Of a stretch of 64,000 nucleotides of DNA, positions 11,095 to 17,532 are shown one piece after another; position 1 is the stretch's first letter, and every line of letters starts with the position of its first letter. The notes below the pieces were generated by a model. It saw only the letters and a list, made by a program, of their open reading frames with translations, was not told the origin of the DNA and ran no database searches. The position numbers were made by a program, and so were the translations under genes. Origin of the DNA: Coriobacteriia bacterium (GTDB lineage Bacteria; Actinomycetota; Coriobacteriia; Anaerosomatales; SLCP01); the NCBI GenBank assembly GCA_007121015.1, contig SKMN01000003.1:4413-68412 (forward strand), read 5' to 3'.

Positions 11095-11714
11095 TCGATC
11101 GAAGGTGTGGGAAGACGCCTGAGCAGCGGAAAGCGTAGTGATTCGAGTACCCCCTCGAGGTTCTCGCCGAGGACCGCGAGCGAGCGCAGGTCGAGACGCA
11201 TGAGCGGGTAGTGCGGGTGTGGCCGGTCGACCGTGAAGCCGTGCCTGAGCAGGAACTCCATGCCCACCATCGGCACCGCGCGCATATCGGCCTTCCGGGC
11301 GAGCGCGTACGCGTAGACCCGTCGCTCCCGTCGCGAGTGCAGGTCCTTCAACGCGGCTTGGAGGAGTAGTCGTCCCAGACCTCGGCTCCGAGCATCGTCG
11401 TGGATGTGAAGACACGCTATGAGGGCGGCGTCGGCGTCGGGCGCTCCGGTCGGCATGTGTCGCGCCTGAGGGAAGTAACCTGTCGGCGCGTACTTGATGA
11501 AGCCGAGCACCTGTCCGTCGTCGAGTGCGACACGCCCGCACTCACCCCACTGCTCGTGGACGCTGGCGAACCAGTCGCGCTGCGCGGACGGATCGCACGT
11601 CGAGCCGCAGACGATCTCTTGGAGCTCGACCGACTCCCAGAACATGCACCCGGCACATACGTGGTCGACCTTGGGCATGTCCGCGGCAGCGAGGCCTGTG
11701 AGCCTCCTACTCAC
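11091..11714 (-). CDS. GNAT family N-acetyltransferase with Cys-rich N-terminus
   Basis: The acetyl-CoA motif ARSRGLGRLLL and the C-terminal FLLRHGF are present, with an N-terminal HVCAGCMFWE...CGSTC cysteine cluster. The GTG start shares 1 nt with the TAG stop of the PRC-barrel gene. Confidence 0.7.
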   Translation of the reverse strand: MSRRLTGLAAADMPKVDHVCAGCMFWESVELQEIVCGSTCDPSAQRDWFASVHEQWGECGRVALDDGQVLGFIKYAPTGYFPQARHMPTGAPDADAALIACLHIHDDARSRGLGRLLLQAALKDLHSRRERRVYAYALARKADMRAVPMVGMEFLLRHGFTVDRPHPHYPLMRLDLRSLAVLGENLEGVLESLRFPLLRRLPTPSIE

Positions 11715-12421
11715 TAGCGACGCTCCTCGTCGTTCATGCCTTGCTTGACGCCCTCGAGGAAGCCTTTGAGTGCGCCTTTAGGATGTCGCTTCGCTCGCGA
11801 GCGGCGTAGCGCACGGACTGTTGCAACGCCAGCCGTAACCACGCCCTTCTCGGTGACCTTCGCGACACGCTGCACCGAGACCTTTGCAGCAGCCGCACTC
11901 CGGCCCGCCCCCGCCGCGAGGCCGCCAGTGAACGCCGTGCCGAGGAACTCGTCTGAGACCCGCACCGCCTCGCCGTCGAACTCGCGCAGGAACGCCGCAG
12001 GCACCTCTCGCCTGCCCACGGCCGTGTCCCGCACCGCGCCACCGGTCACGAGCAGACTGATGATGCGCCCCTCGGCATCGAGATCGGCGTCATCGACGTT
12101 CCCGATGTGGGTGTCGTCCTCGGTGAGCACGGGCATACCGCGCCACACCACGGTCCGCTCCCAGTCGATGCCCGCCCGCGTGCCGCCCTCGCGCTCGAGG
12201 CGCCCTCCGGGCAGGACGCGGACGCCTGAACGTTTGAGGCTCGCCTGACGTGTCGAGATGTACCGGCGCGGCCGCTCGATAAGGTAGAGGAACGGGCGCA
12301 TCCGCACCTCGACACCCACGAGCACCGGCTCTGCCGGGTCGAACACGCATCGCTCCACCTTACCGACCGCCCGATCGCGCGCGTCGATGACCGGTACACC
12401 CTCGAATTCGCTCAGACGCAT
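11714..12421 (-). CDS. PRC-barrel domain-containing protein
   Basis: Two PRC-barrel-like segments are present (GVPVIDARDRAVGKVERCVFDP; GMPVLTEDDTHIGNVDDADLD), followed by a basic C-terminal tail. Confidence 0.6.
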   Translation of the reverse strand: MRLSEFEGVPVIDARDRAVGKVERCVFDPAEPVLVGVEVRMRPFLYLIERPRRYISTRQASLKRSGVRVLPGGRLEREGGTRAGIDWERTVVWRGMPVLTEDDTHIGNVDDADLDAEGRIISLLVTGGAVRDTAVGRREVPAAFLREFDGEAVRVSDEFLGTAFTGGLAAGAGRSAAAAKVSVQRVAKVTEKGVVTAGVATVRALRRSRAKRHPKGALKGFLEGVKQGMNDEERR

Positions 12422-12510: not shown

Positions 12511-12984
12511 TCAGGCTTTGGAGGCTGTGCCCCCGCCGGACTTCTTCGTCTTCTCCTCGACGGCCTCGAGAGTCTCGTCCGCTTTGGCCTCAGCCGCATC
12601 GATGCCGGCCTTCACGGCCGCCCCGGCCTGTCCCACTTTCTCTTTGGCAGCCGGCACTGACGTGGCGACCTTCTCACGCGCCGTCTCGCCGGCACTGCCC
12701 ACCTGGTCCTTGAGACGCTCACGCGCCGAGTCGATCTTGTCGCGGAGCTCCTCGGCCTTGTCGGTGGCCGTGTCTCGACCCTGCTCGTAGACCTCGGTGA
12801 CCTTGGTCTTGCCGGTCTCGTAGAGACCCTTACCCTCGTCGAGATACTTCTGCGTGGTCTCGACTACCATCTCGCGGTTCTCCCTGCCCGAGCGGGGCGA
12901 GAACAGCAGGCCGAGCGCTGCGCCCACTATGCCGCCGAGGAGGAACGCCCCGATGACACTTCCACCATTCCGCCGATCATACAT
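12511..12984 (-). CDS. YtxH domain-containing (general stress) protein
   Basis: N-terminal GAFLLGGIVGAALGLLFSPRSGRENRE is the YtxH signature. The rest is a Lys/Glu/Ala-rich helical region. Confidence 0.8.
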   Translation of the reverse strand: MYDRRNGGSVIGAFLLGGIVGAALGLLFSPRSGRENREMVVETTQKYLDEGKGLYETGKTKVTEVYEQGRDTATDKAEELRDKIDSARERLKDQVGSAGETAREKVATSVPAAKEKVGQAGAAVKAGIDAAEAKADETLEAVEEKTKKSGGGTASKA

Positions 12985-15315: not shown

Positions 15316-15351
15316 GAAAACACAAAGCCCCTCCCGGATAGGGCGAGGGGC
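15316..15351 (-). terminator. intrinsic terminator of the T-box leader
   Basis: On the minus strand, GCCCCUC-GCCCUAUCCGG-GAGGGGC is followed by UUUGUGUUUUC. The 5' half overlaps the antiterminator helices. Confidence 0.8.
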
Positions 15352-15720
15352 TCGTCGCGGTACCACCTATCTTCGCCCGCCTGACGTGACGCGCCCTCGA
15401 CCTCCGGTGGCGCGCCCGCTCGCGCGGGCCTCGTTAGTGCCGGGATACCGGTCCGGCGCCGACCCGCTTCCGGCGGCCTGTGTCGGCGGGCCGCCCTGGC
15501 GGGGGAGTCTCGGAGGGGTGGCTGGGCGGATGATGCCCTCTTCCCTCACGTCCGTTGTGTTCGCTATTCGCCCCGGGACAGCACCCGAGGTTACGGCGAA
15601 GGGTAGCACCGCTCGCCTCGGAGGGTCAAACACCGCCGTATCGGCCCGTGTCCGCCGGGCAGCTGAGGGCGACGCCGGACCGCCCGTCACGACCTTCCGT
15701 CGTGATCATCGCGAAGTCGC
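15316..15720 (-). promoter_or_regulatory. T-box leader (tRNA-sensing riboswitch) controlling the aminotransferase-ddl operon
   Basis: The conserved T-box core GGUGGUACCGCG lies at 15356-15367. The antiterminator is AUAGG/CCUAU, a 7-nt bulge UGGUACC and GCGA/UCGC (15338-15370). A mutually exclusive terminator is present. A long upstream helix (GGGCGG/CCGCCC plus GCCCUC/GAGGGC, 15524-15685) could be Stem I. The 5' boundary is approximate. Confidence 0.8.
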
Positions 15721-15738: not shown

Positions 15739-15773
15739 ACGGGTAGACCCGAATCACGGGTAGGCCCCGAATC
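15739..15773. repeat. tandem imperfect direct repeat (17/18 nt x2)
   Basis: On the plus strand, ACGGGTAGACCCGAATC is followed by ACGGGTAGGCCCCGAATC. The pair sits just upstream (minus-strand sense) of the T-box leader. Confidence 0.6.
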
Positions 15774-15911
15774 ATTGCTAGCCGAGGACTCACGTGCGGC
15801 CACTGAGGCCACTCGATGACCGCCGGATAGTAGGGCCCACTTCAAGCCGCCGCCCCGGGGGGTGTCCCATGGCCTCTGTCGCCTTCATCGGTGGCAGAGG
15901 CCACTCGGTCT

Positions 15912-17369
15912 CTAGCCGAGGAATCGCCTCGCGAGCCCCGCACGCGTGACGAGATCGCTCATGTTCGCGGTCTGACCCTGCTCGAGATTCTCGCGCATAC
16001 GCCTGACGAGGTCGAGATGCTCTGCGTCAGGCACCGCGTCGAATCCGGCTGTCACGAGTGCGTCACGGAGCGGAGCGGTCATGAGCGGACCGTCGGGGTC
16101 GGCGTAGCGGAGTGCATCGTTCAACTTGGCGGCGAACGAGGGGTAGACCTCTTGCACGAAGATGAGGTCGCTTTCGGTAAGCGCCTCGAACGCTATGAGT
16201 TCTGGCGGCAGACCGAGTGAGTATAGGGCGCACGTGAACGAGATGGCTCGTGGAAGCGCTACCCCGCCGAGCTCCCGGGCGTAGCCGAACAGGCCGATGT
16301 GCAACTTGCGCGCCCGCCGTTTGGGAACGTACTTCGCCATCTGGTTGATCTGCGGAGCAAGCTCCACCACACGCGCCCGATACGCACGGCTGTAGCGCTC
16401 GATGATCTCGAGCGCGCGATCGATGTCGACAGCGCGTGGCGGCCCGATGTCGCGCGCCTTCAGGTACTCGCACGCCGCCCGTACCTCGGCCACGGGGTAG
16501 TCGAACTTGAACGCCGACTGGATGCTGAACGTGACTACGCTCGGATACTCCATGCCCACGCGCGTGGCGGTCGCAGGCGAGAGCCCGCCGCGGAAGGGCG
16601 CCGACCCCATGCCGAGGATCGGGTGTATGCCCACCCCCGTTCGCTCGGCCAGTTCACCGAGTCGTGCGAGCGCGACCTTGTTCGAGAGCGCGGCAGCCAC
16701 GAGCCCGTAGTTCATCGCGGTGTCCGAGCGAGCAAGAAAGACGCGTTGATCGGTGACGTCCTTGTCCGCGAGGTATTCCTCGACGATGTCGGCCGCGCGA
16801 ACCATGTTGGGCACGTCCTCGAAGAGCGGGATCACCTCGATCCGCTCGGGCAAGAACTCGCCGATCCACTCGGCGATCGTGATGTCGCCCGGGAACCGCG
16901 CGTGCTGCCTGCCGACGATGTGATCGGTGTAGTAGTGGTAGATGCGGTCGATGTCACGAGCCGAGGTGGTCATCGGCAAGATGACCTCGAAGATCGGGGC
17001 CACATCACGACCGTAGAAGAGGCGTGCGGCATCGTAGGAGCGCGGGATGCTCTCCAGCGTCTCGAGGAGGATCTTCGCCTCGGCCGTCTCGACGGTGGGG
17101 TTGGGCACGCGAAGCGTGAGCCGCAGGTCCTCGCCGAGCACCTGCTCGTGGAAGTACTCCGGGTAGTACGAGAGCAGCTTCTTGACGACGTAGGTGTCGA
17201 TCTCCTTGCCCTCGACGTCCCACATCTGCTCGTCACAGCCGAGGTGCGTGTACGCATAGTAGGCCTCGCGGATCTCGTCTTCGCCCGCGAGTACCGACGA
17301 TGCCGCGAAGAATGGGACCGACGCGTTATCGGGATGCTGGGTGCTCATGCAGTGCGGGACTGCCCTCAT
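15912..17369 (-). CDS. archaeal-type phosphoenolpyruvate carboxylase (PepcA family)
   Basis: The N-terminal CMSTQHPDN motif is characteristic of the atypical/archaeal PEPC family, and length and overall pattern are consistent. The start is placed at ATG 17369 (AGGAGG SD 5 nt upstream); the ORF-track start is 17405. Confidence 0.75.
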   Translation of the reverse strand: MRAVPHCMSTQHPDNASVPFFAASSVLAGEDEIREAYYAYTHLGCDEQMWDVEGKEIDTYVVKKLLSYYPEYFHEQVLGEDLRLTLRVPNPTVETAEAKILLETLESIPRSYDAARLFYGRDVAPIFEVILPMTTSARDIDRIYHYYTDHIVGRQHARFPGDITIAEWIGEFLPERIEVIPLFEDVPNMVRAADIVEEYLADKDVTDQRVFLARSDTAMNYGLVAAALSNKVALARLGELAERTGVGIHPILGMGSAPFRGGLSPATATRVGMEYPSVVTFSIQSAFKFDYPVAEVRAACEYLKARDIGPPRAVDIDRALEIIERYSRAYRARVVELAPQINQMAKYVPKRRARKLHIGLFGYARELGGVALPRAISFTCALYSLGLPPELIAFEALTESDLIFVQEVYPSFAAKLNDALRYADPDGPLMTAPLRDALVTAGFDAVPDAEHLDLVRRMRENLEQGQTANMSDLVTRAGLARRFLG

Positions 17370-17532
17370 CGCCGCCTCCTGTCGTGGAGTGCTCGAACCG
17401 GTCATGGTGAATAGGGTTCGAAGTAGATGTCCCCATCATCGCCGTGGTACGGACACCCGCGCCGCGACCCGGCTCGGGACAGAGGCGCTGCCGGGATATC
17501 GCGAGGGACGCTGATGCCCTACGGCAGTTTAG

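Follow-up and report, generated by a model that had tools for sequence, protein, structure and literature searches.

We analysed a 64,000-nucleotide (nt) stretch of a Coriobacteriia bacterium genome (assembly GCA_007121015.1, contig SKMN01000003.1), hereafter the window, in which the minus strand carries a putative T-box leader ahead of an operon of an aminotransferase gene and ddl. The first gene encodes a class I/II pyridoxal phosphate (PLP) aminotransferase (Pfam PF00155) and the second a D-alanine–D-alanine ligase (NCBIfam NF002378, 337.6 bits against a cut-off of 243). These matches confirm the identities given in an original prediction, made from the sequence alone, which had described the leader as a textbook T-box with a plausible isoleucine specifier; its observation that the two genes overlap, the stop codon of the first with the start codon of the second, also holds (ATGA, 14024-14021). 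The features of the locus, in the direction of transcription, are:

15629-15624, minus strand: −35 element TTGACC of a predicted promoter, 18-nt spacer
15608-15600, minus strand: extended −10 element TGcTACCCT of the predicted promoter
15590-15571, minus strand: 5′-terminal hairpin CCUCGGG-UGCUGU-CCCGGGG, outside the canonical T-box plan
15570-15554, minus strand: single-stranded linker CGAAUAGCGAACACAAC, with a loose A-Y-A-K-C motif and CACC
15553-15504, minus strand: Stem I, of intermediate length, without AG bulge or distal-loop platform; it has two helices, GGAC/(G)UCC at the base and GAGGG/CCCUC in the middle, then an internal loop for the specifier (5′ AAGA, 3′ R-GCC-A-C) and a short distal hairpin, GGGC...GCCC, that is variable
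15522-15520, minus strand: candidate specifier GCC (alanine), followed by a conserved purine, A (15519)
15503-15463, minus strand: Stem II, with base helix CCCGC/GCGGG, a distal hairpin that varies and, between them, an internal loop (5′ CAG, 3′ GGAA) that is invariant
15462-15438, minus strand: Stem IIA/B H-type pseudoknot UCGG-CGCCGG-A-CCGG-UAUC-CCGGCA
15451-15444, minus strand: F-box-like CCGGUAUC, within the pseudoknot
15429-15375, minus strand: Stem III, variable in length, with an invariant GAG (15432-15430) ahead of it
15374-15355, minus strand: T-box sequence GAAGAUAGGUGGUACCGCGA
15370-15338, minus strand: antiterminator, with helix A1 AUAGG/CCUAU, bulge UGGUACC, helix A2 GCGA/UCGC and loop CGAGCCCC
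15365-15359, minus strand: the 7-nt bulge UGGUACC between A1 and A2, with UGGU at 15365-15362
15352-15316, minus strand: intrinsic terminator AGCCCCUC...GAGGGGCU followed by UUUGUGUUUU
15305-15300, minus strand: Shine-Dalgarno (SD) sequence GAGGAG, 10 nt downstream of the U-tract and outside the terminator
15292-14021, minus strand: aminotransferase gene, ATG to stop
14024-13062, minus strand: ddl

The 3′ portion of the leader contains two competing structures. The antiterminator reads exactly as it had been spelled, AUAGG-UGGUACC-GCGA-CGAGCCCC-UCGC-CCUAU, and the competing terminator proposed as GAGCCCCUC/GAGGGGCUU plus UUUGUGUUUU was found at 15352-15316, ending 23 nt ahead of the aminotransferase ATG with an SD in between, again as claimed. 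The terminator reuses the 3′ half of the antiterminator through the common stretch CCCCUCGCC, giving the mutually exclusive pair that is broadly expected of a T-box. Evaluated energies were −18.6 kcal/mol for the terminator and −6.3 kcal/mol for the antiterminator, the usual T-box asymmetry. The 13-mer AGGTGGNACCGCG, put forward as the conserved T-box core, is present as a single copy in the window, against a mean of 0.05 matches in shuffled sequence (5 of 100 shuffles had at least one), and a window scan revealed no second core. Because the shorter 12-mer GGTGGNACCGCG with one mismatch permitted is expected about four times by chance in the window, the motif alone is little proof.

Comparative data carry more weight. 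A genome scan with the aminotransferase yielded 80 loci, nearly all from metagenome-assembled genomes of Coriobacteriia/Anaerosomatales with 74-90% protein identity; three were from Eggerthellaceae, at 57-58% identity. The core GGTGGTACCG[C/T]G lies 70-144 nt upstream of the aminotransferase ATG in 72 of these loci (71 with GGTGGTACCGCG), and a search for it in the three Eggerthellaceae loci found none. Sixty distinct leaders were aligned (alignment A1, to which the leader counts below refer) and a structure model of 45 pairs was tested on them. In this model 93.9% of cells were paired and compensatory changes occurred in 25 of the 45 pairs; when the 3′ partners were slid by 1-3 columns as a control, just 36-51% were paired, and no shuffle out of 500 matched the observed pairing and compensation values. 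A1 and A2 were paired in 100% of cells; A2 was never broken, and A1 covaried at two positions (U-A in 41 leaders versus C-G in 18; A-U in 55 versus U-A in 5). The broad T-box signature, (A)GGUGGNACCGCG forming a 7-nt UGGNACC bulge with UGGN at its 5′ edge, is invariant in all leaders. Each also has a terminator-equivalent hairpin (median −21 kcal/mol) with a U-rich tail and a stem sequence that differs between leaders, and compensatory changes occur in the terminator stem as well as in A1. Folding the decoding domain of the single sequence gave no signal over shuffles (z = −0.19), so one-sequence folding energy is uninformative here. As judged from the alignments, the leader structure is kept in about 70 orthologous Anaerosomatales (Coriobacteriia) leaders. 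These data support the claim that a T-box antiterminator/terminator switch governs the aminotransferase–ddl operon, and we regard the element as almost certainly a genuine T-box switch.

In the leaders of L010, L034 and L077, located about 150 nt before the aminotransferase ATG, the decoding domain is gone, and what is left is the promoter plus a hairpin that resembles a terminator; in L034 a degenerate AGGGUGGCGGUACUGUGA survives too. Such leaders are T-boxes in decay or else artefacts of assembly.

The 5′ boundary of the leader is set by a predicted promoter. The pattern TTGACn-17/18-TAnnnT recurs in 69 of 70 orthologous leaders, 49 of them with the TG extension, and because the three inner −10 positions vary freely among leaders, the element reads as a promoter and not as an RNA helix. 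Its position predicts a transcription start near 15592. Upstream of it the DNA is unrelated among orthologues and mostly represents the end of another gene. These observations bear on the long Stem I of the original prediction, built from 15685-15680 with 15529-15524 and 15670-15665 with 15540-15535. The letters are present as described, but the 5′ strands (15685-15665) lie upstream of the conserved promoter, in non-conserved DNA, and fall outside the conserved transcript because the promoter puts its start near 15592; the 3′ strands belong to a different helix supported by covariation. In 57 of 60 leaders a hairpin begins 3-6 nt downstream of the predicted start. No sequence conservation is seen in it, and it may stabilise the 5′ end of the transcript. 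The linker that follows, 12-25 nt long across leaders, also lies outside the canonical T-box plan. None of its triplets is invariant: leaders differ in carrying AUA, AUC or ACA, and in several all three are absent. Isoleucine codons in the linker (AUA/AUC near 15567) were considered as specifiers and ruled out, several leaders having neither. The window linker (GCGAAUAGCG) resembles GCGAAGAUAGG, which precedes the T-box.

Covariation supports a leader that runs from the 5′ hairpin through a short Stem I, Stem II, a IIA/B pseudoknot with an F-box and Stem III to the T-box and terminator. In Stem I, all four basal pairs show compensatory changes and the distal hairpin covaries (for example, GGGC/GCCC versus GGAC/GUCC). 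The middle helix is invariant in A1 and is replaced in a remodelled orthologue, L056, by a compensatory GACGG/CCGUC. Above the specifier loop there is just a hairpin of 4-7 bp with a variable loop of 3-7 nt. The Stem II base was paired in 99% of cells, with compensatory changes in three of five pairs. In its internal loop GGAAG is invariant in every leader, as are the C and A of CAG, whose G is at least 90% conserved. The pseudoknot expected broadly of T-boxes is present, with an F-box that reads CCGUUA in many orthologues and CCGGUA or CCGAUA in others; helix IIB shows compensatory changes in all five pairs, and helix IIA has weaker support (76% of cells paired). At the foot of Stem III, six of six pairs show compensatory changes. 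A Stem I specifier loop with a codon followed by a purine, another broad T-box feature, is likewise present, and covariation supports the helices that flank it, L056 included; the identity of the codon and its pairing with an anticodon are what we infer.

Within the alignments, GCC (15522-15520) stands out: no other triplet in the 3′ strand of the Stem I loop is invariant. It is present in 60/60 leaders, preceded by A or G and followed by A in 59 and by G in one; L056 keeps the loop G-GCC-A-C, and the GCC triplet is also kept in L070. Bacterial tRNA-Ala has A73 as its discriminator base, which fits the UGGU of the bulge; UGGU is kept in all 60 leaders, supporting the earlier deduction that the effector has a discriminator A73. 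The remaining invariant loop triplets (CAG, GGA, GAA and GAG) would require tRNAs with G73 or U73 and sit in elements with known structural roles. In T-boxes the codon occupies the 3′ strand of the Stem I loop (an apical loop in the shortest forms), precedes a purine and usually ends in C (PMC7583486). GCC-A satisfies both the third-position C rule and the 3′ purine rule (PMC7583486) and would therefore read as alanine. Because GCC plus purine is invariant and UGGU fits A73, the effector is probably tRNA-Ala.

The likely reading of the locus is thus a transcription-attenuating T-box of shortened architecture that senses tRNA-Ala charging and controls the aminotransferase–ddl operon. The data establish the operon, a secondary structure that is conserved, a terminator that competes with it, and the invariance of GCC-purine and UGGU; tRNA binding and the alanine identity, like the transcription start and the synthesis of L-alanine by the aminotransferase, we infer. 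In the proposed mechanism, a sigma-70-type promoter would initiate the transcript near 15592, and the leader would fold into the 5′ hairpin, short Stem I, Stem II, IIA/B pseudoknot and Stem III. From its place in the 3′ strand of the Stem I internal loop, GCC would pair with the GGC anticodon of tRNA-Ala. If the tRNA were uncharged, its 3′ ACCA would pair with UGGU (15365-15362) and stabilise the weak A1/A2 antiterminator, allowing read-through into the aminotransferase gene and ddl; with charged tRNA, or none, the stronger terminator (15352-15326 plus U-tract) would form and transcription would stop near 15316-15326.

This assignment fits the functions of the operon. Ddl uses D-Ala, which derives from alanine, and the nearest solved structures to the aminotransferase are PH0207/1x0m, the multiple-substrate aminotransferase 1wst, the alanine:glyoxylate aminotransferase 2zc0 and LysN 2egy; with 2zc0, an enzyme that acts on alanine and glyoxylate belongs to the family. 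Database labels say only 'PLP-dependent aminotransferase' or '2-aminoadipate transaminase'. An alanine-sensing T-box ahead of both genes suggests that the aminotransferase may make L-alanine, so that low tRNA-Ala charging would raise both alanine synthesis and Ddl. Alanine is thereby a testable substrate hint for a vaguely annotated enzyme, and the reading would account for the aminotransferase–ddl linkage across Coriobacteriia. If it is true, T-box control extends to a cell-wall precursor enzyme and couples D-Ala-D-Ala synthesis to tRNA-Ala charging. A literature search returned no description of a T-box ahead of an aminotransferase–ddl operon. The mechanism is a known one; both its architecture and its regulon represent new variants.

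Compared with canonical transcriptional T-boxes (RF00230; Bacillus subtilis tyrS and glyQS; Firmicutes alaS leaders), the leader shares the 7-nt UGGNACC bulge between A1 and A2, the mutually exclusive intrinsic terminator, the order of Stem I, Stem II, IIA/B pseudoknot (F-box) and Stem III, and a specifier that lies within the 3′ strand of the Stem I internal loop and precedes a purine. CGUGAGGGAAGAG, the 5′ strand of Stem I, is similar to the RF00230 consensus gCgaUGAaagGGAaaAGUA; the RF00230 alignment of a Clostridial T-box (L114) shows that the F-box, the T-box core and the GG/CC closing pairs below the specifier loop are common to both as well. The leader differs in its extra 5′ hairpin and linker, in an A1 of AUAGG instead of UAGGG, and in its genes, an aminotransferase and ddl where aminoacyl-tRNA synthetase, biosynthesis or transporter genes are usual.

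A second comparison is with the translational ileS T-boxes of Actinobacteria (Mycobacterium tuberculosis, Nocardia farcinica and M. smegmatis; TBDB 'class II'), which belong to the same phylum, likewise have a truncated Stem I without elbow platform, appear to rely similarly on Stem II and the IIA/B pseudoknot, and are also poorly recognised with the class I model. Whereas those leaders sequester the SD, the leader described here has a terminator hairpin with a U-tract to 15316 and leaves the SD (15305-15300) free. The solved short actinobacterial forms hold the codon in the apical loop; here it would lie in a side loop, as in an 'intermediate' Stem I, and it reads GCC and not AUC, ahead of a gene that is not ileS. 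In architecture the leader corresponds to the translational actinobacterial T-boxes with an 'intermediate' truncated Stem I, but it is joined to a terminator. A link between tRNA charging and peptidoglycan synthesis also has a precedent: the Staphylococcus aureus glyS T-box is reported to connect the supply of tRNA-Gly to the ribosome with its supply to the cell wall (PMC4574755). In that account the link runs through the synthetase and a non-proteinogenic tRNA-Gly, whereas here the cell-wall gene ddl is itself in the T-box operon.

Several observations weigh against the reading as a tRNA-Ala-sensing transcriptional T-box. Transcriptional T-boxes generally need a long Stem I with an elbow-binding platform (review PMC7583486), and the distal Stem I platform (AG bulge AGAGA plus distal loop UGxRA, interdigitated T-loops) is absent from the leaders. 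No K-turn is recognisable in Stem I: as a candidate GA motif at its base, the 5′ strand reads CGUGAG, but the GA of the 3′ strand is not conserved (GA, GC, AU, AG, CA, UA and others), and the candidate was rejected. A recognisable specifier-loop S-turn is missing as well, and at the expected S-turn site of Stem II the loop, CAG/GGAA, is asymmetric and invariant where the canonical S-turn is GAA/AGUA. RF00230 gave no match in the window at its gathering score, and none at E ≤ 10 in two sub-regions. Because the helix beside GCC does not vary in the main alignment and one C (15518) separates the purine from it, the specifier frame was picked by rule. GCCACC is complementary to the T-box GGUGGU, so its invariance could have another cause. 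Neither the window, whose tRNA genes are tRNA-Arg(CCU) and tRNA-Gly(CCC), nor any of 60 scanned loci, which have no tRNA gene at all, contains a tRNA-Ala gene. A metagenome scan with GAYAGGTGGVACCGCG for paralogous T-boxes of the clade gave just Clostridial asparagine T-boxes and chance matches in coding DNA.

The silence of the covariance model merits separate comment. It extends to 20 orthologous loci, where RF00230 had no match at gathering score, and is not a tool failure, because a canonical Clostridial T-box, L114, was detected as a positive control at 78.9 bits (E 1e-17; gathering score 93). The original prediction had offered this model as its check and took the lack of a significant hit to count against it; the hit is indeed lacking, and the T-box identity is upheld by the covariation of the 60 leaders. 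We judge the model a poor test here because that conservation and covariation outweigh a model trained on T-boxes with a long Stem I. The adjective 'textbook' does not survive, with RF00230 silent even at E ≤ 10 and a short Stem I that lacks a recognisable K-turn or AG-bulge/distal-loop platform. RF00230 with its gathering score overlooks a whole T-box clade in uncultured Actinomycetota. The Clostridial T-boxes, at L114 2637-2878 and also in L085, L100, L117, L121 and others, carry UGGC and an AAC (asparagine) specifier ahead of an asnB-like gene (product MCSI(M/I)GYC...); with 78.9 bits falling below 93, they too are missed at the default threshold.

Among alternative readings of the same switch, a Stem I loop read in a different frame, with a specifier such as CCA (proline, 15521-15519) or ACC (threonine, 15519-15517), is improbable. 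The loop R-G-C-C-A-C leaves one C unpaired before the helix, so position does not set the frame, and tRNA-Pro also has A73. Against this, CCA ends in A and is followed by a pyrimidine, violating both the C rule and the purine rule; ACC would extend into the helix; CAC (histidine) would require UGGG; and proline, threonine and histidine are unrelated to Ddl.

We give little credence to an isoleucine-specific T-box whose specifier would be the AUC in the distal hairpin's apical loop (15534-15529), on the pattern of the ileS T-boxes with a short Stem I known from Actinobacteria. The apical loop of the window does contain the triplet proposed originally, AUC (15534-15532), short actinobacterial Stem I elements do hold the codon there, and tRNA-Ile also has A73. 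This loop is variable, however: AUC occurs in just 33/60 leaders (AUH in 34), and the other 27 have GNRA-type or other loops (GCGA, UAAU, CUUC, CAUG and others) while all other T-box elements are invariant. The long Stem I in which the triplet had been framed sits upstream of the conserved promoter, and an isoleucine signal has no obvious link to ddl. GGC (15537-15535), the alternative that had been set aside on the ground that the window tRNA-Gly has U73, lies in the paired 5′ strand of the same hairpin; the U73 itself was confirmed.

It is very unlikely, we think, that GCCACC serves instead, or in addition, as an internal mimic of the tRNA acceptor end, with the GGGC...GCCC hairpin and R-GCCA pairing with GGUGGU (15367-15362) in a tRNA-independent or self-inhibited conformer. 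RNAalifold does pair GCCACC (15522-15517) with GGUGGU and GUGAGGG (15549-15543) with CCCUCGC (15349-15343), and all the bases concerned are invariant in the aligned leaders. Since those columns are invariant, covariation is impossible, and L056 breaks two of the seven GUGAGGG/CCCUCGC pairs while keeping the local Stem I by compensatory change, which makes the long-range consensus less likely than the local Stem I. An alanine specifier GCC followed by A gives GCCA automatically, and short G+C-rich complementarities are common in the leader. The GCCA/UGGU match may be a simple outcome of the alanine specifier plus A, or a real alternative conformer. Scarcely credible, finally, is a leader without any tRNA switch, in which an ordinary intrinsic terminator is accompanied by a T-box-like motif that arose by chance: RF00230 is silent and the one-mismatch 12-mer is not rare, but the exact 13-mer is, and the motif, both helices, the F-box pseudoknot and Stems I-III are conserved with covariation in about 70 genomes.

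A bolder proposal, which we hold tentatively and think somewhat unlikely, is that this lineage of transcriptional T-boxes works without an elbow platform, a feature regarded as essential for T-boxes under kinetic control, and would place Ddl and an alanine-forming aminotransferase directly under the control of tRNA-Ala charging. Either the conserved 5′ hairpin and linker or the acceptor-end-like GCCACC element might stand in for the platform. A terminator-type T-box without an elbow-binding platform would in any case be a natural test case for rapid tRNA capture.

Regarding the operon and its surroundings, ddl lies within 77 of the 80 aminotransferase loci and immediately downstream in 69. The order aminotransferase–ddl–YtxH-like–PRC-barrel is retained almost everywhere, loci without a T-box included; in the window the YtxH-like and PRC-barrel genes lie at 12511-12984 and 11714-12421 (minus strand). 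No terminator-like sites were found between these genes, so the T-box-controlled operon may have four genes. In L078-L080 (Raoultibacter and another member of the Eggerthellaceae), the aminotransferase–ddl order is kept at 57-58% protein identity behind an AT-rich leader without T-box, which makes the linkage older than, or independent of, the riboswitch.

Other searches around the locus returned little: further T-box cores across the collected loci amounted to just two chance matches inside genes; the ten longest open reading frames of the window include no aminoacyl-tRNA synthetase gene; and a protein search for distant aminotransferase orthologues with canonical T-boxes gave, among the matches listed, only relatives of at least 77% identity. 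In L042 (1-1934), which has no T-box, a second aminotransferase-like coding sequence precedes the aminotransferase match and is possibly a tandem paralogue. Directly upstream of the leader in the window, an archaeal-type phosphoenolpyruvate (PEP) carboxylase gene (TIGR02751, 585 bits; 15912-17405, minus strand) ends at 15912; it adjoins the aminotransferase gene in just one of the 80 related loci (L069). Between this gene and the promoter lies a 17-18 nt tandem repeat in two to three copies, GATTCGGGKCTACCCGT on the minus strand, and a 14-nt inverted repeat stands immediately past the PEP carboxylase stop codon; the window sites of these repeats are 15739-15783 and 15870-15903.

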